Source: Moniliella sp. 'wahieum'
Lineage: Eukaryota
Length of the DNA stretch: 64,000 nt
NCBI GenBank assembly: GCA_003971905.1
Contig: RSEE01000045.1
Location: 310,001-374,000 of the forward strand
Reading direction: 5' to 3'
Part shown: positions 1 through 63,385 of the stretch, in pieces
How the letters are laid out: the number at the start of each line of letters is the position of its first letter
Position numbering within the stretch: the first letter of the stretch is position 1
Program-made: the position numbers and the translations under genes
The notes under the pieces: generated by a model
The model's database searches: none
What the model was told of the DNA's origin: nothing
The model's input: the letters and a program-made list of their open reading frames with translations, nothing else

Positions 1-1661
<1,661 letters not shown>

Positions 1662-3749
1662 TCATGGGGGCAATGGAATGGTGTGAGAGGGAGGACAGGG
1701 GGACATTTGCTTGCGCGGAGGACGGCAGGCAGGCAGGCAGGCAGGCGGGGAGGCGGGCACGGAGCGGGCGAGGCGAGGGAGGCGAAGGGCACAAGGCAGA
1801 GATGGAGGGGGAGGGAGGCAGAAGTGGTGGTGGTGGTGGTGGCGGTGCCGGGGGAGGAGGGAGGCTAAAAGCGCGCCTACCGTTCGTTTGCGTGTTGCGT
1901 TGCCGCGCACGACGCAGGCGGGAGGCAGGGAGCGTTGCTCAGTACCCCCGTGCCGTCTGCTGCGTGCTGCGTGCTGCCGTCTGCCGCTCGTCCAGTGCAG
2001 GAGCAGGACGCATGACGGCGACGCGTGATGAGATGGACGGTGGCCTGGTGGGCGCCCTGGGCCTCCCCCTTACCCGAGCCGGTGACTAGTGAGTAGTGAC
2101 TAGTGACTCGTACCCGTGCCTTGGGCGCAGTGGCTAGGGTGGCCCAGTGCCTAGAACTACCGACCGAGGAGCCCGGGAGCAGGGCAGCAGCCTGTGGGAT
2201 GCGGTGTGGGATCGATGGGAGAGAGCCAGTGCAGTGTGATAGCTACGGAAGCACCTACCAACTCCCCGTCCAAATGAGCAACATTTCATTATTAATCCAG
2301 GCGGCAACAAGGGACCAGTGCCCCAGGCGGAGGGTGAGGCGTGACATGTGTGACAGAGGGGAGCTAGTGGCAAAGCGACGGGTCCTCGTCGAGCGCGTCA
2401 CGCGTCATGCGTCATGCGTCAGACCTTAGAGCTTGGCACGTCCGATTGAACTCTGCACGCAGAGCCCCCCCCGCGCCCTGGTCCTGGCCTGGGGCACGGC
2501 GCTGCTCTGCACCTGCGACATGCACAGTGACCAGGTGGCTTGCGACAGGGCTTGCTGTTGGCCGCAGACACGCCATGCCAGCTCCTGTTCTATGCACAGG
2601 CCACGCAGACCGACTGCTCTCAGACCGAGCTCTCAGACTGAGCACGGGAACCGACTGGCTGTTCCTGCGTGCGCTGAGCACTGCTGAATGGCTGAAGCTT
2701 GAACCAGTCGAACATTGAATGCTGCCCCAGTGCTGCGCCTAACAGGGCCCTCGCTCTTATTCAGCTGGGAATTGCGGCTTTGGGAGGCCGTGGCTACTGG
2801 CGCGTGCATGTGACATGCGACACGTGGTGCATGATACACGATGTGTGACGCGTGATGGTGCAAGTTGGTGGCCAAGCCAGTCACGAATTAGCCGGCGCGC
2901 AGGGTAGGCGCTCATGCATCGCGTTATTTATTAGCGCTTGAGGTACTGGGTAGCACGAGTACTACGTCTGTGTTGCGTATGTGAGTACTCAGGCTCAGAG
3001 TGTACTGAGTAAATAAGTAACGGGGTGAACTGAGTTTTTTTGGCTGGCTCAGTACGTCTCTTGAATAACGACTAAGACGAGTGAGTGACTGAATGCACAC
3101 CTGCGACTTGGAGCTTGGGATGCCGGATGTGTGATATCTGATGCATGATGTCTCCGATCATTGGTGATCATTGCTTGAACCAGCACGTTTATTTGCACCC
3201 TCGGTGCCGCGGGCTAAGTTCTAAATGTTTAGCCTGTGTAGCGTGCAGCCTTGGAGCCTCTTGTAGCTTGTTTATTATTCACGGTTTTAACGCGTAACGC
3301 GCATCGTTTAGCGTTTAGGCATTGCTCTAAGCGGCTAAGCGCTAAACGCATATAGTGCTATCGTGCTAAGCTCAACGCCTCCCGGTTACCGCTTACCGGC
3401 GCTTACCGGTTCCCCGGGAAAATGGACCGCTCTTCAATCTCATTGGTTTCATATTTCAGACCCCGGATCCCAGACCCTACACCCGGCTGGCCCTAAGCTG
3501 TTGCAGCCCATGGAGCGCGGTGCCTGCATTGGATCCCTGCACCTCGCGGCGCCGGAGCCAACTGTCATGCATTGCATCATGGCAACTGTTTACTGTAGCC
3601 TGAGTTATGCAGACGCCATCATGCTTCACTAGCATTTGTCACTTGTCACATGTCGCGTGCCCACTCGTCCCGCCGGCTTTTGCCAGGCCCGGACGGGGGC
3701 GTGAAAAGCAATTAATGTTAGACTGTGATCCTGCAGCTGCTCTTATCCC

Positions 3750-3820
3750 GGCTCGATAGCGTAGTGGTAACGCATCCCTGGCAATAGGCGATGACATGGG
3801 TTCGAATCCCATTCGAGTCT
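3750..3820 (+). tRNA. tRNA-like gene with a defective anticodon arm (possible Cys/Thr-type pseudogene or sequencing error)
   Basis: Acceptor GGCTCGA/TCGAGTC plus T73, D arm GCGT-AGTGGTA-ACGC, T arm ATGGG-TTCGAAT-CCCAT, followed by a T-rich tract. Anticodon stem TCCCT/GGCGA has a mismatch and the loop (GGCAATA) is non-canonical. Confidence 0.65.
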
Positions 3821-4517
3821 CTTCTTTTCCTCACTATTTCCCCCGGGCTGTGCCTTCTCACAATTAACTTGACGCTAACGTGCTGACGGGATTATGAGCC
3901 CCTGTGCCACTCTTCGGCCTGAATATGATATCTGAATCCTGAATAGTGACTAGCACTGGTGACTAGGTGAGTGACTAGTGACTGAACCAGCCAAGCGCCA
4001 AAAGGACATCCTGCATCCAATCCAAACCTGTGGCAACTATCCAACCCATCCTTCGGAGCATGGAATGATCATCAATCGCCGGTCACCGGTCACTGTAGCA
4101 CAGGTACCCCCGGCATCACGAGCTTCACGCATTACCCGTTAAGCTTTACCAAGATGTATACCAGGTGCACCAGTGCTGTACCATCAGGCTGTAGCGGCCA
4201 AGGTGTACCTGGCAATTGGAATAGCCGTGGGGTAGACAGAAACATGGAACGAGAATCGGGCCGGCGAGAGGGCGGGCCGCTGGTTATTGACCGCTCCTTT
4301 CGGTCCTGTTCCGCCTCTGCTCCCCCCCCCCCCCCCCCGCCCCTGTTTGCCCCCCCTGTGGCAGCCCGCCGCCCTTGTGAGAGAAAGCCCGCGCGCATCT
4401 CCTGTGTCGCGTCCTACACCATGCATCATCACCGGTCACCAGAATGAGTTACTGGGGTGGTCGTGGAACGTAGCGTTGAATGATGAAATTGAAACGTTGA
4501 ACGTAACGTTGAATGTC

Positions 4518-4612
4518 TGACAAGAATGGGAATTCGAACCCACGCCCCCAAGTTTGGAGCTACTAGCTGCTACAGCAGGCTAACATATGTATCGACGCTA
4601 GCTTGGACCACT
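4518..4612 (-). pseudogene. Degenerate class II (Leu/Ser-type) tRNA remnant
   Basis: Minus strand reads AGTGGTCCAAG (D loop) ... CTCCAAACTTGGGG (long variable arm) GCGTGGGTTCGAATTCCCATTCTTGTCA (T arm and 3' acceptor resembling tRNA-Leu). The adjacent 5' acceptor strand is missing and replaced by ACTGAGT-type repeats. Confidence 0.55.
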
Positions 4613-6088
4613 GGTACTGAGTATACTGAGTAGTACTGATCGATGATCGATGACGCATGCATCGTACATCATGCATCATGCATCATACATCATGCATCAT
4701 GCATCATGCATCACGCGTCAGGGCGTCAGCACATCTGCATGACAGATCTTAGACTGCAGGGTCCATCAGGGTCTTGCCAGGTAGCACCGGAGGTATCGGG
4801 TTGTGCAAAGGCTGGAGCAGGCTGGAGCGTAGGAGTCGGCTGCGCTGGCGTTTTCTGTTACTGATGCAGATGCAGGTCGGATTCTCAGAATTCAGATGGT
4901 CAGCCGTCAGATGTCGGAGCTCATGCGCTCATGCACGTACCATGCACGTTGCACCGAAGCAACTGATACAGATGATCGATCGATTAATGGTCGATGGTCG
5001 ATGAAGCTTGAAGCTGCCGTAGCAGTGCTGTAGCCTGCAGAAGCTGCTGCAGCTCCGCCGGCCCCATGTCTGGCAAAGCGGGTACCGGACGTGTGACACG
5101 TGACATGTGACTTGGCATGTGATGCAATGCATGATTATCGATGACATATGTGTGACGTGTGATGCATGTGATGTACAATGCCACACGTGACATGTGACGT
5201 GCGGCATGAGTGCAATCAGCATCACATGTCACAGGGACTAGCGACTTCTGACTCTAGTTACTAGTTACTAGTTACTAGTTACTAGCTAATGACTAGCCAC
5301 AGTGACCGGAGTGACTAGTGACTAGTGACTAGTGACAAGCTAGTACGTTGCTAGTGACCTAGTGACCGGAGTAGCTAGTAGTGCTCCAAGCTTGAATTTT
5401 GAAGCCGCAGGCTGTAACCACATTCACAGCCAAGCAACAAAGCCGCCTAGAAAGCGCTGCTAAGCACTGAACTCAGTACGTCCAGTCACTATTCCTAGAG
5501 TGACTTTCGGGGCTTGTGAAAACAAGGGGCAGTCACTAGTCACTAGTCACCGGGTCAGATGGCGGGTGACGTAATGATGGGGTTCATACGCCTGAGCCTC
5601 ACCTCAGATCCCTCAGACGACCCGAATGCGAGCAAAGTAGCAAGGAAGCAAAGGATGCGTTGGGTAGAGAGAAGGAATCATTAATCATTAATCATCACTC
5701 AAGTTAATCAGGATCGGCGAAGAGCGAAGAGTAGCTAGTGATAGTGAGCCCCAGGCCTGATTAGTTCCTGATTAGCGCTTAGCTACTGTGACGCGTGACG
5801 GTGGCAGTATAATTCTGAACGTTGAACGTTGAATGTTAAGGTGAACATTCAGTTGAACGTTGAGCCTCAACGTTGAAGTGAAGGGCGGAATGGGTGGGAG
5901 GGCAGGCGGAGTTTCTGTCACGTGACCGATCTGGACCGGACCGGCCGGCTCAGCGCGCGGAGCGGCTCGGCTGGGCTGCGTTTGGGGGTTGCTGTGCTTT
6001 CGCCCCAACCTGCCCGCGGCCCGCTTCACTCGAGCAGGGCCTGGTGCGCGCATACCCCACCCCCCGCCTCGCCGTCCGCACCCCCAGC

Positions 6089-9000
6089 ATGAGTGCCGCT
6101 TCAACGCTATTTCCACCGTCCTCAACCACCCCACTCGTCGGGCCCACCCCATCGACCCCCACTCGTCTCGCTACCCGCCCTTCTTTTCCCCGCGCTCCCT
6201 CCGGCCGACACCCTCGTCCCCCCCGCTGCCCCTCCTATTGACGCCGAGGCATATGCGCGTGAGACTAGGCCGGCGTGGGGGAAATTGCGACGCCCCCTGC
6301 CGCCCGTGGCTCTGGGCTTGGGGCGGCTGGCACTGGCGTTGTGAGCGAGGAGGAAGACGTGGCGCCACTGGAATCGGTTGCCTTCGGTGTTCTTTGACTT
6401 GGACTATTCCCTGTCCGACCCAAGCTTTGAGCAGGTATTTGAGGTCAGTGCCGCTGTCCCTTTTCCTACGGATGGCACTTCGTCCCTTGCGAGGCCGCCC
6501 AAGAGGCCATTGACAGCATCCCACCCTGCTGGGCGAGAAACTGTCGTTTTATTCGGATGTGATCGAACAGCATCTCGTCACTGCCTTGTCTGAGCGCTCG
6601 GAAGCGATCCTGAATGCCGCCTCTTCTCTGCAAACCCTCACCGAGGCTGGACGCCAATGTGCTTCCGACACGGCTGCGCTCCAGGGCAGCATGCGCGCTT
6701 GGACCAGGACATCACTCACACCGGCACCTCTCTCATCCTACACCAGCACCGCCGCCGCCGACTTCAACTGCTACTGTCCACGCTGGAACGCATCCAAACG
6801 GTTGTTAGCCAATCAGAAACAGTCGAACAGCTTGCTCAGCAACGTAGATGGTTGGACGCGTTGCAGACTGCCAAGCAAGTTCGTCTGTCACTCCAACAGC
6901 CTCTTGTCCTTTCAGCCTCAGCCGGTACAGAGGATCAGCAAGAGGAAAAGCAGCTCAAACTTTCCGACGTTGCCTCCCTGGCAGCATTGTCAACTCGCCT
7001 GGACGGAAGTGCAACACAAACCTCTGAGGCTCTCTGTGGCGAGCTGGAAACGGCATTGAGAGATGGTTCACAAAGAGCATACTGATCTCCTCGTTTCTGA
7101 GGCAGATGACCGCGCGACACCCGGCACTCTTCTCAGTACGATGAGCAATTACGTTCTCTGCGAGCCCGGCGGCCCGCACCTTGCGTTCCTCCATCGCTTT
7201 GGCTGCCGAGCAGTTGGCCGAGGCTACAGCGGAGGCTACCCCTTGCCGGGCACGAGGCCTCCCCTGTCGTCACTGCTTCTCTGATCCAAGGTCCTGATTC
7301 ACTTCCCTCGGGAAGTCGATCCCTTGCCGAAAGGAGATGAAACCCACCTCAAGTTGCAGGAAGAGGGGATGCTGGAGACCATACGGCCCTTGCTTGCTGC
7401 TCTGGCACAAGCCAATTCCCTTGGTTTGGTCCCTCGTACCCTAGAGCAGGCTACCTTTGGGAGCTGTCCAGCAAATTGCCCCGGTTGCTTGGACCGCTGC
7501 CCAGTTCCCAGAGGAAGCGATTCCTGGCCTTGTTCAGCTCGTCAATCCAGAGCCCGGAGTGAATAAACCTCCTGAGGCGGCCATCGCCCACCTTCGCTCT
7601 TGTCTGCCCCCGAGTTTGTGGAGCGAACCCACGTTTACCTGAGCCGTGTTAGACGTGCTTCATGCTTCTGACCAGGCCCTCGTCATCCTTTCGCAATTGC
7701 CCGAAATGATCCAGCTGCCTGCGGACGACGAACGCATAACCCAAGCTCGTATGAATGCTCGCGTGGCAGTTCACACCTCGGCCGCACGTATCTTTTCCGC
7801 GCGGGGTCTTGTGCTGGGATCGCCGCAGCCCGCCCGACCCTAGCCGATCTTGAGGACCCGGCGAACGTCTGGGCTGACCCAGAACTGACCGCTTTCCTTC
7901 CCTCTTTCCAACTGGGATGGGGCTTCATGCTGCGTAGCCGCTTGCCTTCTCACTTGGCAAGCAGTAATAGCGGGTCCAGTAACGGGTCCAGTGGCGGATC
8001 CGATGTGCTGCGCTCCACCCTTCTGCGTTTGGCACGCGAGTTTGTGGGTGTGGTACATGCCCGCAGGTTGTCGGTTGCAGCGGCTGCTGTGGACACGGAG
8101 AAGTGGAGTGCGAAATCGGTGCCAGCCCCAGTTCAAGCACTTGTGGAGATGATGTTGCTTGGGGCAACGGAGGACCCAGCGCAGCTGTTGATGTTGTGTC
8201 AGACTGGTCAAGGATCTATCCAGCAACCGTTGCAAAATGGCAAGACACCACCCAACGCGATCCCAAGACGCTTGAGATCGAGGGCCACCGGTACTTTGTC
8301 GTGGGGGCGACCTTGATTGTGCTCCCCCAGTTGGGGCGGTACTGTCGCCTGGTTGTCAACCTGCCCCTGATCTGTGTCGAAGTTCTTGCCCGTCTCGTCG
8401 AGTTTCTCAAACAATTTAACAGCCGCGTGTGCCAGCTGGTCCTGGCGCAGGTGCGCTCCGCAGTGCCGGTTGACCAATATCAACGCTCGCCATTTGGCGC
8501 TGGCTGAGCAGTCTCTCAGTGCTGTGATGGGCCTACTGCCCTACATTCGCGAGATGGTGCGACGCCACCTGCCAAAGCGGATGAAGCTGATGCTCACTGA
8601 GTTCGATCGTCTGCGACAGGACTACACTGATCATCGGATGGAGATCCAAACTAAACTCGTCTCCATCCTTCAGGAGCGAATTGCTGTTCATTCACGCTCT
8701 CTCCGGGTACGTTACTTCCTTGAGGTGGGTTTGATGTTCTGAATGCTGACCGCTATCTCGATACAGGTTCTGAATTGGGAAAAAGCTGCTGAGGCGGAGC
8801 GTCAGTTCCGACTTGGACTCAAACAAAAAGCGGCCAATACACCTCAAGATGAAGAAACCCCACAGGAGGAAGGGAGCGGGAATGAGAAGGGCGAGGAGGA
8901 ACCTCCTCAGCTGAGTCCCCTAGCTGGACTTCTCAAGGATAGCTCAACGTTATCGACCATCTAAGTCGCTATCTCCCCACTGGTACGCTCGAGTCGATCA

Positions 9001-12870: not shown

Positions 12871-13212
12871 CTCCTCATCGTTTCCCGCGCAGAGGCGGGC
12901 AGAGCGGCAGCCGAAGGGAGGACGTCGGGCGATGGTGGGAGGCGCCGCCGCGCCAACGAAACGACACGACAGCGCCGAGGGGGGGGGGCCGAAAGCAACC
13001 CTAGCGCTTGTCCCAGGCCTAGACTGCCCCCGTGCCCTCGGCCTCAGTCAGGGTGTCCAATCGGGGCGGCGGCAGTCGTGCATCATGCATCACTAGTAAC
13101 TGTTTTTTTCCCGCAAGTTCGCCAGCGCCAGCCGGAAGGCGTCTCGACCGTCGCTGTCGCTGCCGCCGTCGCCGTTGCCACCACCATCGCTCCGGTTGGG
13201 CAGCTCACCTAG

Positions 13213-19145: not shown

Positions 19146-20323
19146 AGAAGTACGGCGCCGGGCGCACGTCGATGCGTTGGCCGGCGGGCGGCGGAGCGGG
19201 GGCGATGGGGGCAATGGGGGTGGTGGGGAGGGAGCAGAGGAGGGGGGCAGGGCGGTTGGTTATCGAGTGACTAGGGACTAGTGACTAGTGATACTGCAGG
19301 CTGAGTGGCTGAGCCCAGCCGGATTGAAATGTTTGTTTATCCTCCGGCCGGACCCTTACCCGCTTTCGCCGTGTCAGCCTCTTGGCTGCTCTGAATCTGG
19401 CTGGCGTCGCGTTAGTAGTGGACAGTACCACGGCCGTCAGCAGCACCGCCGCCCCTGCGCTCGGTATCAGGTCGCTGTAGTGGGGGGCTTCGGCTGCCCC
19501 TCGGCACCGTCTTCACTGGCTCGCTATCGCTCGTTTTCCGCCACCAATCATGTGGTGCGTGCATTGAATGGTGGCGATCATATTACCACACCGTTGCAAA
19601 CAACCCTCTCTCGTCGAAGGCACTGCGGCGCAACAGAGAGAGGTATATATCTCTCTCGCTCTCGAATGTGCACAGGGGTTGTACGTTCTTGTCCCCACGG
19701 CATCGGGCCCGGCTTCCAGCGCTTCCATGGCGCTCAAGCAAGGCTCAACGTCTAACGTATAGTATACAAGGGACAACAATGCCCTACTGGTGGGGGGACT
19801 GAGGAGCGTGTGTATTCTATCAGTGTAAAAAATGAGTACGACTGATACTAATCCCATTGGCCATTACGGCTATCGCCAATAACACCGCTCAGTATAGCTA
19901 CAGTTCTTCGTCGGCAGTCAAGGTTCAGCCTGGGGGATGCCTGCTTTGGATTGGAATCAAGATATGAATACGTTGAGTACTACTCAGACTGAGGTTTCAT
20001 ATACATGTACATGACAAGGACTTTGCTTTTCTTTGCTTTGCTCCAAGTAGTAGAGAGAAGAAAAAGAGAAGAGAAAAGTGTATAATTCAGATACTAGGTA
20101 CACCACAATATATAGCGTGAAAGAAAGAAATATTGTACACAACAAAGGGAGAGGGAGAGGGCGGGGAGGGTTCTTCGTTTCTCCTCGAAACTTGATGGAG
20201 GACGGAGAACCGATACTGCGTAACTGCGTAATGCATATAACAATGCTGAACGACGGGGGTACGACGGACACGATGGGTACGATGGGGAGGATGGGTAGGG
20301 GCTCGAAAGGGAAAGAAAATGGA

Positions 20324-25137: not shown

Positions 25138-25894
25138 GGAAGACGGACAGGGCTGAGAAAACGGAGAGAGAAGAGTGTGGTGGCAAGACTATGTATGTGC
25201 GCGGCTGTGTCGACTGCGTCCAGAGCATGCCCAGGCGCCTGGCCAGCCCAGCCGAATTTTTTTGTTCGCCCGGGAGGATGGCCTGATTAAATGGGCGGGG
25301 CGATCGGTGCATCGTACGCATCAGCCATTGGGCTGGTCACGGGTGGGCGTGGTGTGGCCTGCTGCTGGGGAAGACGGTGCTGTTGAACGTTCAACCGGCC
25401 GTGTGGGTGCACGTACAGTACCCAACTGAGTCTCAGACCGACGTGTTGACAGGAGACAGGGGGCGAGGGCGGCGAGAGTGGCGCGGTGCGGCTCAGGAGG
25501 CCACGCGCTGTTGCCGCCAGCTGCCACGCAGTTAAAGTACGGCGGTGCGCGCAGCTGCTGCGCGGCAGATGCTGCCCCAGTGCGGCGCCAGTGCTGAACC
25601 CCTGCCCACGGTGCTCCTGTCTTTATAGCCGCTACCAACGGGGGTTATTTGTCTGCCCCACCTACACCACCCAGCGCCCCTCCTCACCTCCACCTCCACC
25701 TCTGCCCCCGCCCTCGCCCTCGCCCCCGCCCTTGGCCTGCCACACCACCCTCTCTCCGCCCAACGCACATCCGTCGGCATGCCTCCTGTTGTGCTGATCC
25801 CTACGGCGCGGGCCCCCCCACCCCTGTCTGCATCCATCCCCCCGCCGCCCAACTCTCGCCCAAGTCATTGGCGTCCCGCAGGTCCCCGAGCGTT

Positions 25895-31764: not shown

Positions 31765-32944
31765 AAGCCTTTTTACTTCTTCGGGTCTCGATCTCGACGC
31801 GTCGGACGTCGGACGTCGGGCGGACGGGTCTTGTTGTTCTGGTGTACTATTTCCTCCCTGTTCCTGATGGCTATACGCGTCCTAATCCGTTGTCCGTTGT
31901 CCGTTCTCCCTTTCTCTTTCCTTTTTTCTCCTTTCTTTTTCTCTCTCTCTGTCGTCCCCTTTACCTCTTCCTTGCTGCGGGTGGCTCAACTGAACGTTCA
32001 ATTGAACGTTGAACCCTCGTGGCGCCTGAGGATGGCAATCGGTTATGTTGTCTGTACATTGGCTCTTTTGAAGGCTTGCTTGCTTGCTTGCTTGCTGTGC
32101 GTTAGGCCATTGGGCCGTCTGTCCGTCTACAGTTGTGTTCCCTGCATCTTTGATGCCTCAGGTTGAGGCCTCAGGGCCATAGCCCCCGTTCCGTGTCATA
32201 CTCAACGTTCGACGTTAACCTCATCTGAGCCCCGAATCTACCCTGCGTCGTGGCGCCTGGGCAGGCTCAGGCGTACAGGGCTCACGCTCACCACCAAGGG
32301 AAACCCAATCACAAGTAGTGGGGTTGTTGGGGAAAATATGCACGACGCAGATGTGCTGAAGATGAAGGGAAAGACTGAACAGACTTAATGAAACAGAGCA
32401 CTGAGGTACTGAGGACGCCAGCAGTCCAAGCAGACTAGTAGAATTAGCCCGGGAAAGTTTCCCACACCCTCTCAGCCACAAAGGAGAGAGAGTACTTCGG
32501 TTTGGTTCAACGTATAGCGTCCAGACAAGCCGGCCGGGTCTTCTTGACGTAAACAGCCTAGGCAAAAGGAAGGCAAGGAGAGCATGTCGTCTGACGCGTC
32601 GCGTTGCTGGTTGCGCGTGACGAGTGACGCGTGACGCATGACGCGTGAAGCTTGAGCTTGAAGACCGCGCGCGCGCCACCTGGTTTTGAACGTTGCAAGG
32701 TACAGGCGTACTTAAGGGGATGGATGGGTGACATTAGCACGCGACGGTGATGCGACGCGTCGCACGCGGGCAGCCGACGCGCTGCGGGGGCGGGCGGGTG
32801 GCGCGCGGGGCGGAAGGCGGGAGGCGGAAGCGCAGACGGCGTATCGGCAGGTCCTGAATCCTGAATGCCCAGCGGACGCGTCCAGTTGGCGCCACCCCGC
32901 CCCGACCCCCACGTCCCCCCCACCACCTGCCTCGACACGCCACC

Positions 32945-43599: not shown

Positions 43600-45301
43600 C
43601 TTGAAGGTTGACTTCCAACTGGGGAATTGAAGCTTGAAGCTTGGAGTATCCTTGCACCAAGGTATCCACCACTGTTTTTCGGCCGCCAGGGAGCATATCA
43701 GCTGGCGCCGTAGGCAAAGTATTAGCACCCTCTCTGTACTCCCCTTTTTGATAGTAGCACAGTCAGGTGGGATTCGAATAGAACATGGTATATGCCTAGT
43801 CCCTCGGCACGAAAGGTACACTCGATGCAGCATAATAAGGGAAACTTGGGACAGGGTAGGGGGTACTTGAAGCAGCGTAAGGAGGCACACTCCCTCCAGA
43901 ACGAGGGGGTGGCGGGGGGTAATACATGCCCTGCATCCAAGGGTAGTAAGGGTAATACGGTGGGGGTAAAAGTATGGTGGAATCCCCTCCATAGGGTTAG
44001 GCCCCTCCTCTGTGGTCCCTGTAGGACGAGATGGCGATGGGTAAATTGGGACCTGAGGCGGGGCAGGGGGATCAAACGTTGCTGAGTAGGAGGGGTGGAT
44101 CTCCTCGGGTCTTCCATCACCTGATGGACTTGCTCGAGTAGCGAACCGACCATGCCAATGCTCCGTGTGAGTGCGGTATTGTCTCGATGGCCATGTCTCC
44201 GTTGACCAGGTGGGTGAAGTGACTCTTGCACCTCCGGCTGCTCAACCGAATTGTGAGATACACCAGCATGTGAGGCATGCATTGCAGGGGACGAATTCCT
44301 CCCTTGTTCAGGTAGAAGACTTTCCTCCCGCTGGGCCTTGAATTGGTCGAGAAGAGCCAGAGCGCGATCTATGGCGTCCAACTCCTCATCCTCTTCCGGG
44401 ACAGGGGATGCGCGATAGGTACCCTTGCCGTACGGGCCGGTACTCAATGCGTCCCCAGGGGTAATTGACGGTGAGGGAGGTGTGGATTTTCTCAATTGGG
44501 GGGACTGCACAAGCGACTCGTCGTTTGGTAGGAGAGTGCCTCCTCCCCCCGACGATACAGAGAGAGCAAGCTGTTGCAGCATTTGCGTCAACGCGCCCAC
44601 TTGAGCCGATTGAGCCTGAAACTGATTAGCCAATCGAGCATGAGATTGTCGCAGCTGATCGTTTTCCTCTTTCAGTTCTTTCATGGCCCCAAGCAAATCA
44701 GTCGCATCAGAGGCATTGTCTTCGTCTGGCCGAGAAGAGGGCCAGGCACCGGGGGGTACTTCCGGTTCCTCTTTCCTCACTCCCGGGAGAAGAAGACCCG
44801 AAGAAGACCAAGCGCCTGAAGGAGCGGTAGGTAGAGATGCGGTGGCCGGAGAGGAGGGTGTCGATTTCGGTGTCCCCGTAGGGGAGTATGGCAAGCGGCG
44901 GCTGTGGATCGTAGTCCGGGACACTTCGGGAGCAGACGAGTCCGAGGGCCGAGGACGAAAGCCTTGGGATCTTCTTCCCTTGCCGCGAGCAGGCGGTTGA
45001 GCAGAGCCGTCTTCCTGGGAGGGAGCTACAAGGCTGCGCACCGCCTCTTGCGCAGAGATGGGTGGGAGATCTGGCTGCCACTGGTTGATAGCCTGGGCAG
45101 GAGCATGGCCCGCTAGCAGATGTGCAACAGCGAGAGAGCCTGTGCGCACTGGTGGAAGAGGCGAATTGGCGCGTGGCGACGAGTTGCGGTCAGACACGCC
45201 CATGCCCGTGGCACACCTGCAAGTCCCGTGACTGGGACTGTGGCCAGCGCAGAAAGCAAGATGGTGGTGAGAAGGAACAAGCCCCTGCCAGAACCGCGCA
45301 T
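43600..45301 (-). CDS. Orphan protein with putative signal peptide, coiled coil and Pro/Tyr-rich tail (frameshifted)
   Basis: MRGSGRGLFLLTTILLSALATVPVTG joins the 493-aa ORF 43722-45203 via one frameshift; coiled coil LKEENDQLRQSHARLANQ; 3' end uncertain. Confidence 0.45.
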
Positions 45302-45633
45302 CGCACAGGGGTGGCGGTGCACAGGCGCGGCGCGGCGTGGCGCAGGAGGCACAGGAGGCACCCAGGCAGCAGTTCAGTGTCTATGGATGCAACCCAAAGC
45401 CCCCAGACCTAAAACCTAAGACCTAAGGCCTAGTAGCTAGTAAGTAACTAGTAACTAGTAGCTAGTAACCAGTATGGCCTAGGCCCGAAGGGACGCCACA
45501 GGCGTAGCCTCCAAGATGCACGAAGCTTGAAGCCCCCCGTCCAGGCTGGGCCGCCCTCGTCCACACTATTGACGTGAGGTGTGAGGCCTGAGGATGGGAT
45601 ACAACACTATTGGATCACTAGCCTCTCGTCTTG

Positions 45634-52207: not shown

Positions 52208-54940
52208 GGCGGACGGAAGGGTGGGTGGTGAGTTGGGTGGTAACGAAAGGCAACAGCTTGCCTCTGGGTGGGGATTTATATACAGGGAATCCTTGCGTGC
52301 TCCCGCCTGCTGATACCGGAATTGGACGAGCCACCGCTGAGCCACTGGCGAACCCACGTAGTCATCTGCGAGCCCCTGCGAAAAACACGGGTTATCTGGA
52401 CGAATGTGACCTTCTAGACCACCCAGGCACACTGTGCAAGATCGAGGCGAGGCCATTTCAGTATGAGACAGCGGGGGGGGCTCTCAGGTGGCGAGTGCGG
52501 TGGGCGACGAACGGTGGACAACGTTGGGTTGCTGGTACTCATCCATCATCACTGTGGGTCTGTAGATAGACGATGACTGTGACAGAGATACGAGTTCGCA
52601 GTAGCATGTGTCGGCGACCTCGGTGGGGAGCTCAGCGCCCCCGTGCCCCCACCCACGGTGCTCACCCACACCGACTCGATCATCGCAACACCACGGCCTG
52701 AGGAGGCAGAGCAGGCCATAGTCCTGTATAGCCTGGCCAACGAGCCCCGAATGACTAATGCCTAGCAATGGCTGAGGAGCCTGAGCGCCTGGGTGACAGC
52801 ACACGTTGGATGCCCAGGAACGCCGTTTCTGGTTCTGTCCCGAAGGACGAAGATGATCCGGCGAAGACACCCAAGACTACGCTAGACCCGCGCCACGGAT
52901 CAATATAGCTATCGCGCAAGCCTCAGGAACATCCCTGGACGAGGCGTGGTTGGTCGACACTGTTATCGTGCGGGGGTGTGTTATCCATATGCTATCGCGC
53001 CGATCACATCCATCACCACCTGTTTGCATGATTGGCTGGGTGACAGTGGCCTGTGACCTCGTCACCCGAGTGGGGCCGTCGCACAGCGCCTGGGGAATGT
53101 GCTGCTCTGCACCATATGGCCCGACGGTTTCTCATCTTTTCATTTCAAACGATTCTTGGCACAGCAACGCTCAGCGCGGTAGTTCGGTTGGAACCGTGAT
53201 GGCTTATCTTCGGGAAAACAATGCCGGCGCGGCTGCCATGCTTCAGCGCCTCGGCCTGCCCGGCTGGGCGGCTGAGCTGAGCTTCGGAGCACGCGCGCCA
53301 CAGCCTGCCGTAGTGCATAGCAGGCCATCGCCTGACGCGCTGAGCCAGCCTAGGTGATGCTCAGGCCTGCTCAGGCTCGACGAGCGCTGAGGTTGAGTCT
53401 GGTTGAGCGCGTCCCAGATCCCACCAGGTCCCAACGCGCAGCGTGCTGGCTCTGGCCATCAATGCATCACATGGCATATGCTCGCAGGACCACCACATGG
53501 CTGTTCGGATGCCACGGCAAGGCCACACCGGTCACGCGGAAAAGGACCGCATGGTTCGACGGTTCGTCCAATTTGTCCGCATTCCCCACCTTTAAGCTTT
53601 GGCGATATATGGACGAGGGGCAGACAGGCTTCTCACTAGCGCAGAGATACAGCAGGACCCACACGCTATTTCTATATTGCCGCAGGCCCGTCGTCACAGA
53701 GATATGCCGAAGCACTGTCACGTTGTCACATGTGGACAACAGACTCATGACCCCGTTTCGGAAATTGTACACGCTGTTACAGGACGGCGGAGTCGAAGTG
53801 GGGGCATGGCAACGGCACTGTTGCAACAAGCTACAGTCTGTTGCAGTTCGCCACATTATCGTCGGCAATCCGCGCAGACGCAGGAAAGCTAGGGGGGAAC
53901 ATACATTCTGAGTATGGAAGGCGTGGACAACGACGGCTTCCAGCACACCGCTCCACCTACAGGGGGGTAAAGAGGCGGGGGCGTAGCGGGGTCGCGAAAA
54001 AGTCGCACATGGATGCAGTTAAGCGGTACCCTCGATGAATTAGTGATCCTCAGGCCTCACGCGAATATACCGCGTACCGGCCAGACCCCCATATGGCCGA
54101 TGTGGTACCAGTCTCGGCGTACACAGCCTGCATGTGCATGTCTGCGGGTCACGCCAGGGTCACGCCGGTCACGCGGTCACGGCAGATCCCGGCAGGCCTC
54201 GGCGCAATTTTCTATGTATACGCACAGTACTGTGGGCAGTACTCAGTGAGTACTCAGGTACACAGTGTGTCCTCAGTATTCCATGCGTTGAATCGATCAC
54301 CGTTCAACGTGATCATCGACCAACTGTAGATACTCTGTGCATACGGGCTTCCCACTATACCTCTCAGAAAGAGGTTTCCGAACCGCAGATAGTGTGGAGG
54401 AGACCGGCTCATACATGCGAGATAACTCGAGTATTAGCATCAGAATTGTGTGTTTGTCAAGGTTCAAACGTTTCGGCATCTCGTTCAATAAAAAGGTGTG
54501 TCTTTTGCCACCCTCTTAGATCAGAGAACCATTATTGTACCCCAGCGTTTTTCTCTTTGTGGTGTATCTCGATATGATGGTTGTGAGTGGCAGTGCTCTG
54601 TCCCTCGCGCCCACAGCCGAGTTGCTGAAGCTGCTAGTTGTGAGCCGCGAGAAGTGATGCCGTTCCAGGTCGAGTTGGACGTTGAACGTTGAATGTTTTG
54701 AGCTCGAGCGCGCTCAGCCTGAGCGCTCCACCGCAGCACCCAACCAGCGCTCAACGCAACGTGCTCAACGTTGATGTTGAGACACTTTGGAATAAGACTT
54801 CCCTCCAAACCAGGACTGATGGTTGTGGTGCATCAAGATGGAGGTTTTTCATTTAACTCAAAAGGCTACCTCTGGTCTAAATCCCTCCTTGGGCGCTTAA
54901 CCGCCGTTCCACACTGTCCACCGTCCCACCGTCCACCGTT

Positions 54941-56080: not shown

Positions 56081-56512
56081 ATAACCGTAGAGGCCATCGC
56101 ATGATGGCAGGGGGATGCACCAAACGTGGCGCATGGGCCTGTGAGATAGGAGTGCTATAGGGTTCCTGCTCGGCCCTCAAGTGATCGCAGTGACGCTTCT
56201 TAGTCGGGCGGAGGGGTTCCCTTCGCAAGCATCAACACAGCGCACCCCATCGCCCCTGCTCGCTCCATCTCTCTTCTCTGTCTCTGTCTCTCCTTATTCC
56301 CTCAGACGTTGCTTGAAAAGATGTGGCTCACCTTTTTGCTTCCAGACATCACGCCTTGTTTGAAGGTTCCGCCTCGTTTAGGAGTTGTGTCCCCGAGTGT
56401 TCGCAAATCGTACTCTACTTGTAGTAGTATTGGCATGCTTTGAATTGACAACACGGCGGTTTCTACACCCTGAGAGAAGAGCCCCTTATCCCTCTGTCAT
56501 GTTATACCCCGC

Positions 56513-56540
56513 GGTTACCGGTTACCGGTTACCGGTTTCC
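56513..56540. repeat. GGTTACC x3 (+1 degenerate) heptamer-palindrome array
   Basis: GGTTACC GGTTACC GGTTACC GGTTTCC read directly. Confidence 0.9.
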
Positions 56541-56890
56541 GATTTGGAGATCGGCAGGTGGGGAGAGCCATGATGGCATGAGACCTGAGGAACAGAATTC
56601 ATGGCGGCCCCAACGCCGCTCGCCCGAGCACCGAGCGCGCGCTCTGAGTTAGTTGTCTTGGGGCCACTGTGGTAGCTCTGTAAATTATCTAATCGTCCCG
56701 CCTTGCGGCAAGCATTGTGGAAATGAAAGTATGAACTTGGTGATTCGATTATTATCGCGCACAATGCGGCGGGTCTCTCCTGTCTTAGATATAGCTATCG
56801 TGGCCAGGCACCCTCCCCATCAAAACAGCAATGCGCCCCAGGCTTTTAGCAAGCTATCTTTTTTCGCTCGCCCCACCACCCGCGACCATC

Positions 56891-63313: not shown

Positions 63314-63385
63314 GGGCGGATAGCTCAGGGGTAGAGCGCTTGCTTAGCATGCATGAGGTCCGGGGTTCAATTCCCTGTTCGTCCA
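63314..63385 (+). tRNA. tRNA-Ala (AGC)
   Basis: 72-nt cloverleaf GGGCGGA...TTAGCAT...GGTTCAATTCC...TTCGTCCA, G3:U70 alanine identity pair, followed by TTCTTTT terminator. Confidence 0.95.

Follow-up and report, generated by a model that had tools for sequence, protein, structure and literature searches.

Tandem 7-bp palindromes with a T-N-A centre in an intergenic region of a Moniliella genome

How short tandem repeats are born is poorly understood, unlike how they grow. The question is raised in concrete form by a 64-kb stretch of the genome of the fungus Moniliella sp. 'wahieum' (contig RSEE01000045.1, positions 310,001 to 374,000; 57% G+C; hereafter referred to as the window). A repeat-rich gap of about 4.2 kb in this window, bordered on the left by a protein-kinase gene and on the right by a Vps54 gene, holds many short tandem arrays of differing 7-base pair (bp) units. 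What do these units have in common, and what process could have multiplied them? Here we report that 21 of the 43 exact period-7 arrays in the window obey the rule xy-T-N-A-y'x', in which complementary two-base arms flank a T-N-A centre, as a first-pass annotation of this DNA had proposed. The rule is real and highly non-random, and apparently it is undescribed so far: a full-text search of the literature found no description of this heptamer grammar.

A palindromic rule at period 7

We defined an exact array as a maximal run with s[i]=s[i+7], a total length of at least 14 nucleotides (nt) and a primitive unit, and a lenient chain as two or more in-phase units with at most one mismatch each, at least one of them perfect. 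Chance expectations for exact arrays were taken from 100 third-order Markov sequences of the window. Window-wide, 23 of the 43 exact arrays have a rotation that reads as an odd palindrome, xyzNz'y'x', and the centre is T-N-A in 21 of these 23. The Markov model gives 3.9 ± 2.0 exact arrays per 64 kb (maximum 8) and 0.05 T-N-A arrays (maximum 1). Under a uniform expectation, T-N-A units make up 64 of 2,340 necklaces, or 2.7% (binomial P = 9e-22), and at a chance of 1/4 among palindromic units, 21 of 23 corresponds to P = 3e-11. The arrays that the annotation had located were seen again both by eye and by Tandem Repeats Finder (TRF).

Most of the T-N-A arrays lie in the gap. Between positions 2081 and 5880 there are 19 exact period-7 arrays, 14 of them of the T-N-A type, and four of the remaining five are, by eye, one position off the rule. 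The other seven T-N-A arrays occupy separate non-coding spots (13079, 19276, 32624, 43627, 45443, 54679 and 56512), so that 14 of 21 arrays fall within 3.8 of 64 kb, a roughly ninefold clustering. In the same region, exact arrays number 19 at period 7 as against two at period 6 and two at period 8, and the identity at lag 7 reaches 0.361, whereas the other lags lie near 0.255 apart from echoes at lags 14 and 21. Outside the region, the lag-3 periodicity of coding sequence is the only one seen.

The excess is also seen in single units and in imperfect arrays. The window contains 256 single xyTNAy'x' heptamers versus 176 ± 13 expected, and heptamers with ANT, CNG and GNC centres are at expectation; within the region, isolated T-N-A heptamers are about twofold enriched (26 versus 12.9 ± 3.7). 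Lenient chains number 48 versus 12.3 ± 3.3 by chance, and chains of at least three units 15 versus 0.9. Self-complementary units account for 28 of 103 arrays at period 5 (27% expected), 10 of 58 at period 6 (20%), 23 of 43 at period 7 (10%) and none of seven at period 8. Only at period 7, and only with a T-N-A centre, are self-complementary units in excess, and the enrichment over other odd palindromes and simulated controls that the annotation had anticipated is confirmed within the window.

Expressed per site, T-N-A palindromic heptamers are duplicated about 300-fold more often than other heptamers (21 arrays at about 176-256 sites, versus 22 at about 64,000 positions) and about 40-fold more often than palindromes with other centres (two arrays at about 800 sites). 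The annotation had attributed the arrays to an enzymatic process acting at T-N-A-centred sites; what stands of this inference is that the process is far more site-specific than ordinary slippage. The two candidates it named, 7-bp target duplications of a transposon and hAT/RAG-type hairpin footprints, are considered below as possible sources.

Arms, centre bases and decay of the units

Eight arm dinucleotides occur in the exact arrays (AG, CG, GG, GA, CA, CT, AA and GT). In the lenient chains 14 arm types are counted, some of which are due to chance, because 12.3 chains are expected by chance. The earlier figure of about 12 of the 16 possible arm types is therefore tenable if imperfect arrays are included, and too high for exact ones. 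Moreover, two of the units cited as examples behave differently: CCTGAGG is present as single units only, and ACTGAGT mainly within the 9-bp unit TACTGAGTA. The array of the latter, the only 9-bp array of the region, is again a T-G-A-centred odd palindrome.

The centre base is identical in 15 of the 16 pairs of adjacent perfect units with the same arms, the sole mismatch being GTTGAAC GTTCAAC at 25382. The duplicated segment is the whole 7-mer, including its centre base. Across the 21 T-N-A arrays, a tally by eye gives G or C at the centre in 17 and A or T in four. By our own count, 13 exact T-N-A arrays have about two copies, four about three, three about four and one about five, a roughly geometric fall-off.

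The same arrays can be described in two further, equivalent ways. First, each array is a 6-bp palindrome A-NNNN-T plus one spacer base, as in ACTAGT, ATGCAT, AACGTT, ATCGAT, ACGCGT, ACATGT, ATTAAT, AAGCTT, AGCGCT and ACCGGT. The region holds 66 hexamer palindromes of this form versus 12.7 expected, whereas those with outer C..G, G..C and T..A number 19, 23 and 11 (17.5, 17.5 and 12.7 expected). Second, each array is T-N-A plus a 4-bp palindrome, and neighbouring arrays with different arms often hold this phase (TGCA-TCA TGCA-TCA CTAG-TAA at 13079; CGCG-TGA into AGCT-TGA at 32616). By eye, the exact runs do not begin or end at any constant phase of the unit.

Many arrays are blurred by point changes. 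ACGCGT grades into ATGCAT via cgtcatg and catcacg, and AACGTT into AATGTT and AACATT, variants that fit CpG decay on the two strands. CpG to TpG or CpA changes dominate the unit variants at 2394-2421, 4656-4722, 5816-5834 and 32614-32650, a pattern suggestive of methylated or deaminated cytosines within the arrays. Judging from the unit sequences, it is unlikely that all arm types descended from one ancestral unit by point mutation, because most paths cross non-palindromic states; only the change from CGCG to TGCA, for which the intermediates cgtcatg and catcacg are present, is explained by two-strand CpG decay.

To see how far the rule extends, a metagenome scan for (AGTNACT)3 gave at least 125 stretches, and 120 non-overlapping loci (722 kb) among the matches listed, to which the following counts refer. 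Period-7 arrays other than the seed that have a T-N-A centre and other arms number 8 of 422 (1.9%), about the chance rate; thus, among these matches, the grammar does not travel with the AGTNACT unit. Most of the listed contigs contain mixed, mostly non-palindromic heptamers of a bacterial kind. Leaving aside the three contigs described below, the other 117 loci hold 319 non-seed arrays, of which 304 are non-palindromic, 11 palindromic with other centres and four T-N-A arrays with other arms. Many contigs (L006, L007, L021, L054, L073 and others) have about 52-57% G+C, and several are labelled human-gut or bioreactor metagenomes; in those of the L006 type, varied non-palindromic arrays (AGTCACC, AGGGATT, TGAACCT, CATTTCT, AATGAGA) lie beside AGTSACT and resemble STRR-type repeats.

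The three exceptions (L071, 1-8664; L008, 1-10129; L042, 1-19436) are eukaryote-like, with a G+C fraction of 0.44-0.45 and dense short arrays of 5-8 bp, and their long open reading frames (ORFs) match no Pfam family. They share with the fungal window a high density of short period-7 arrays whose units are self-complementary; among 103 non-seed period-7 arrays, 43 are odd palindromes with centres other than T-N-A. Unlike in the fungal window, it is the arms, A(G)...(C)T, that hardly change, and the centre triplet that differs between arrays (AGACTCT, AGGCCCT, AGGACCT, AGCTGCT and others). The fixed letters thus lie in the arms (CTAG or the T|A junction) and the centre is free, the converse of the fungal rule, and many non-palindromic heptamers and 5-, 6- and 8-bp arrays occur alongside.

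Origin of the arrays

We tentatively favour, with a probability of roughly 0.35, a process in which site-specific staggered cleavage over 7 bp, or transposon insertion and excision, seeds arrays on which slippage then acts; our best guess puts such enzymatic seeding only slightly ahead of hairpin-assisted slippage. The DNA-cleaving activity would be specific to the lineage, with a DDE-type transposase as the most plausible candidate; it would target short two-fold symmetric sites centred on T-N-A and cut both strands 7 bp apart. Two routes would lead from each event to an exact tandem copy of the 7 bp: insertion and then an excision that retains both target copies, or abortive cleavage, fill-in and end joining. 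Since duplication would recreate the target, sites could fire again and arrays grow; later, ordinary slippage would add or remove copies and CpG-to-TpG decay would blur the arrays. The complementary arms would come from base pairing in repair, through the opening of hairpins or through P-nucleotides, as when hAT, MULE or Transib elements excise. Palindromic units would be stable end states, because hairpin opening on them regenerates the same junction.

The rule, the sharp 7-bp period, the copying of whole units with their centre base and the strong local clustering are shown directly; we infer the enzyme with its 7-bp stagger, and the origin of arm complementarity in base pairing during repair. 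The features point two ways: the fixed T.A, the single sharp period and the strong clustering suggest an enzyme of two-fold symmetry that cuts with a 7-bp stagger, whereas complementary arms of any sequence suggest base pairing. Target duplication, or copying of a whole unit, predicts the shared centre base found in 15 of 16 adjacent pairs, and independent 3-nt footprints between 4-bp duplications are disfavoured because of this sharing. A Tc1/mariner-style 4-bp palindromic target with a 3-nt footprint, which would vary the centre base within an array, was rejected on the same count of 15 same versus one different. Local re-insertion would give clustering such as that of 14 of the 21 arrays in the gap. 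Furthermore, a general hairpin effect is disfavoured because self-complementary units are not in excess at periods 5, 6 and 8.

Several points weigh against enzymatic seeding. Among 136 inverted-repeat pairs of at least 11 nt in the window, 16 are flanked by a direct repeat of 2-5 bp, with arms of at most 14 nt, and none by a 7-bp duplication. No transposase domain was found in 93 of the 157 ORFs of at least 130 amino acids (aa), the other 64 being mostly overlapping alternatives, or in 22 ORF segments, in agreement with the earlier remark that no transposase is visible in the window. A protein dimer cannot require complementary arms of arbitrary sequence, and an extra pairing step must be assumed because protein recognition leaves such arms unexplained. 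Arrays reach about eight copies, and to our knowledge no footprints in the form of multi-copy arrays have been described. From the canonical hAT target consensus, nTnnnnAn, one would expect T-NNNN-A plus one base, the reverse of the polarity found here (66 A-NNNN-T versus 11 T-NNNN-A). Hairpin-type footprints, as described in excerpts of PMC5873905, vary in length, in contrast to the sharp period of these arrays.

Symmetric T-N-A target cores are known from Tn10 (GCTNAGC) and from IS5 and PIF/Harbinger (TNA), which resemble the arrays in that cleavage is centred on a T-N-A core of two-fold symmetry. However, their duplications are 3 bp or 9 bp, whereas here the period is 7 bp and the centre is copied with both arms, and we know of none of these elements that leaves tandem arrays with variable complementary arms. 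The consulted excerpts of PMC12730594 report 7-bp target duplications for hAT7 families in Pucciniales and Kyakuja families in Agaricomycotina. Their length equals the sharp array period, a period that slippage would give too. Elements with such duplications occur in Basidiomycota, but the reported hosts are Pucciniales and Agaricomycotina, and the word 'Ustilagin' is absent from that paper. According to excerpts of PMC5873905, the sites of Ac/Ds excision in Candida bear deletions and P-nucleotide palindromes, the centre of which is the complement of the base beside the element; 128 excisions gave 28 footprint types, with palindromes arising via hairpin resolution. Such footprints are, like the units here, odd palindromes on one free base, made by pairing whatever the flank; the spread of lengths that end joining would leave is not seen here. 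A footprint origin calls for intact or decayed element copies in the same genome; in the window, no pair of terminal inverted repeats is flanked by a 7-bp repeat, and the scanned ORFs encode no transposase domain.

The main rival, only slightly less probable, is slippage assisted by DNA structure. The arms of a looped-out xyTNAy'x' unit would pair as the 2-bp stem of a mini-hairpin, with T-N-A as its triloop; longer arrays would give a 5-6-bp stem with a T-N-A loop, and the slipped intermediate would be stabilised or escape loop repair, so that self-complementary heptamers gain and keep copies. DNA mini-hairpins with a 2-bp stem and a triloop can be very stable, and palindromic loops escape mismatch repair in yeast. 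Complementarity independent of arm sequence is a hallmark of base pairing rather than of protein recognition, the geometric fall-off of copy numbers favours slippage, and whole-unit copying with a shared centre base fits slippage too. Indeed, slippage micro- and minisatellites share with these arrays head-to-tail exact copies, the fall-off in copy number and decay by point mutation, but they follow no rule on the unit, whereas half of the period-7 arrays here obey one and those of other periods none.

Folding predictions bear on this explanation in both directions. Folded as DNA, single arrays reach -0.3 to -10.5 kcal/mol, with z scores of -0.6 to -2.3 against dinucleotide shuffles; where a fold forms, including the predicted folds of three units, T-N-A lies in the loop of a 5-bp stem. 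Because single arrays fold so weakly, with those of 2-4 units not clearly better than shuffles, structure alone is a poor driver of 2-4-unit arrays. The pair (AGTTACT)4 and (AGTGACT)4, 26 nt apart at 5250-5342, folds strongly: the predicted energy is -44.3 kcal/mol for RNA (z -6.5) and -16.5 kcal/mol for DNA (z -3.1). Structure-assisted slippage leaves the T-N-A centre unexplained, given that single CNG and GNC sites number 323 and 296 versus 256 for T-N-A, yet have at most two arrays between them. It also leaves unexplained the restriction to period 7, with period-5 odd palindromes at expectation (28 of 103), and the ninefold clustering in one gap.

An improbable explanation is that the arrays are selected functional elements, for instance divergent-promoter platforms that bind protein in either orientation, elements that set nucleosomes or boundaries, or hairpin-RNA loci, resembling small-RNA precursors, made of neighbouring arrays with the same arms. 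No array overlaps an ORF with a family match, several lie just upstream of genes, and palindromic units, being identical on both strands, would suit divergent promoters. The predicted RNA stem at 5250-5342 is 27 bp long, with G-U wobbles at each unit centre, and it matches Rfam microRNA-precursor families (MIR6288 and others) below threshold, at best with 35.4 bits versus a gathering score of 74; these matches reflect generic hairpin shape only. However, the 8 to 14 arm types have only T.A in common, so that no single sequence-specific factor fits, and the arrays decay by point changes without visible conservation. An assembly or base-calling artefact, or contaminating synthetic sequence, is scarcely credible, as the arrays, of at least eight arm types, are scattered over nine or more separate non-coding sites in the 64 kb, show graded mutational decay and stand amid intact housekeeping genes with normal lag-3 periodicity, and we know of no sequencing error mode that makes exact palindrome-rule 7-bp tandem copies.

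Three other candidates were dropped. A fold-back transposon with arms at 2076-2101 and 5531-5556 was rejected because the order of the arrays is not mirrored; a self-BLAST of the gap found neither segmental duplication nor fold-back symmetry, only arrays matching one another. Proximity to a tRNA gene was rejected as a cause, since a second tRNA gene (63314-63385) has no array cluster. A reading of T-G-A and T-A-A as stop codons was also discarded: the complementary orientation reads TCA and TTA, and the arrays are non-coding.

Period-7 repeats of other origins differ in their symmetry. Bacterial heptanucleotide repeats (cyanobacterial STRR and the heptamer simple sequence repeats of Xanthomonas and Nostoc, excerpts of PMC4692102) are likewise intergenic and often form pair-wise hairpins. 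Their units are mostly not self-complementary and the hairpins arise from inverted array pairs, whereas here single units are self-complementary and the host is fungal (a Fungal_trans domain; best named matches in Ustilaginomycotina). The 'palindromic microsatellites' of PMC7218506 are, in the excerpts consulted, mitochondrial (A)n/(T)n palindromes and unrelated.

Genomic setting and implications

The arrays and neighbouring genes are listed in Table 1. The kinase and Vps54 genes flank the gap divergently, as had been annotated, with the kinase, SKY1 in the annotation, identified at the domain level, and ORFs within the gap have no credible family match. Just upstream of the kinase gene lie (GTG)8 at 1824-1847 and short repeats rich in GGCA and GGCG at 1722-1790, and the gap contains a run of about 22 C (90% pure) at 4322-4343. 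A 14-nt stretch on the minus strand at 4529-4542, GGAATTCGAACCCA, is the near-exact inverse of the T-arm (3797-3810) of the tRNA-Leu gene in the gap and may be a tRNA relic; at this position no tRNA was called by ARAGORN, nor by Rfam at E values up to 1. Elsewhere in the window, one ORF carries the Fungal_trans domain, and the best-matching named relatives of an OPT transporter come from Tilletiaria, Jaminaea, Parajaminaea and Violaceomyces (about 43-46% identity), with one further relative at 75%, which suggests a sparsely sampled branch of Ustilaginomycotina. An ATG-initiated ORF of 493 aa on the minus strand (43722-45203) matches no Pfam family and has no relatives of near length in a large protein collection; it may be spurious or lineage-specific.

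Table 1. Arrays and genes discussed in the text, by position in the window
Feature	Positions	Strand	Detection or remark
Protein-kinase gene fragments (Pkinase)	50..1102	-	Domain match; left border of gap
(AGTGACT) chain, 4 units	2081..2108	.	TRF, exact count, lenient chain; exact run 2094-2108
(CGTCACG) array	2394..2421	.	Grades into cgtcatg variants (CpG to TpG type)
(CGTAACG) x2	3288..3301	.	Exact count
(GCTAAGC) imperfect array	3327..3349	.	Within 44-nt self-inverted stretch 3305-3348
GGTTACC unit, then 10-bp derivative array CGCTTACCGG x2	3384..3409	.	
(TGTCACA)-type array	3636..3654	.	One arm mismatch
tRNA-Leu(CAA) gene	3750..3821	+	Inside repeat-rich gap
(AGTGACT) degenerate array	3940..3983	.	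Exact run 3970-3983
(GGTCACC) x2	4079..4094	.	
9-bp odd palindrome TACTGAGTA x2	4614..4639	.	T-G-A centred
(GATGATC) x2.4	4637..4653	.	
(CATCATG), about 8 units	4656..4722	.	Longest array; catcata, catcacg and cgtcagg variants
(ATGGTCG) x2.4, adjoining (CTTGAAG) x2	4987..5015	.	ATGGTCG is a GATGATC variant by one mismatch
(TGTGACA) chain, 3 units	5092..5112	.	
(AGTTACT) x4.6	5254..5285	.	Pairs with 5310 array as long hairpin
(AGTGACT) x3.9	5310..5337	.	
8-bp derivative CTAGTGAC x2	5351..5367	.	
(AGTCACT) x2.9	5531..5551	.	Exact reverse complement of 5310 array
(AATCATT) x2.9	5676..5696	.	
tgtgacg CGTGACG pair	5787..5800	.	Lenient chain
(GTTGAAC) arrays	5816..5882	.	Include 35-nt self-inverted stretch 5848-5882
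Vps54 domain, right-border gene	8371..8739	+	Domain match
(CATCATG) x2	13079..13092	.	Followed in phase by CTAG-TAA
(AGTGACT) x3.7	19266..19291	.	Just upstream of minus-strand Zn2Cys6 factor gene
GTTGAAC GTTCAAC	25382..25395	.	Perfect 14-bp palindrome; only adjacent same-arm pair with differing centres
(CGTGACG) x5 with variants, into CTTGAAG units	32614..32650	.	Between HMG-box and SMC-type genes
(CTTGAAG) x2.4	43626..43646	.	
(AGACCTA / CCTAAGG), then (AGTAACT) arrays	45405..45474	.	
(GTTGAAC) x3.4	54674..54697	.	
(GGTTACC) x4.3	56512..56541	.	Upstream of aldose-epimerase-like ORF

A bolder and rather unlikely extension of enzymatic seeding is that the fungus has an undescribed activity that seeds microsatellites, either a transposase-derived enzyme or a structure-directed nuclease cutting 7 bp apart across T-N-A palindromes. 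If so, each event would write one more copy of its own site; arrays would be born through an enzyme and propagate themselves, instead of arising as a side effect of replication. On this view the metagenome contigs with the converse rule, of fixed arms and free centre, would point to sister activities in other eukaryotes. Bolder still, paired arrays might be transcribed into long G-U-containing hairpins that feed small-RNA pathways.

The first duplication of a short repeat appears to be hundreds of times readier at one definable class of 7-bp sites. This would provide a tractable system for asking whether an enzyme or DNA structure seeds repeats, in which, given so simple a rule, reporters only one or two bases apart could be compared. 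Were a transposase the cause, past insertions and excisions could be read from the arrays of a compact fungal genome that shows no elements nearby; were the cause structural, repeat instability would have a new determinant in the T-N-A triloop.

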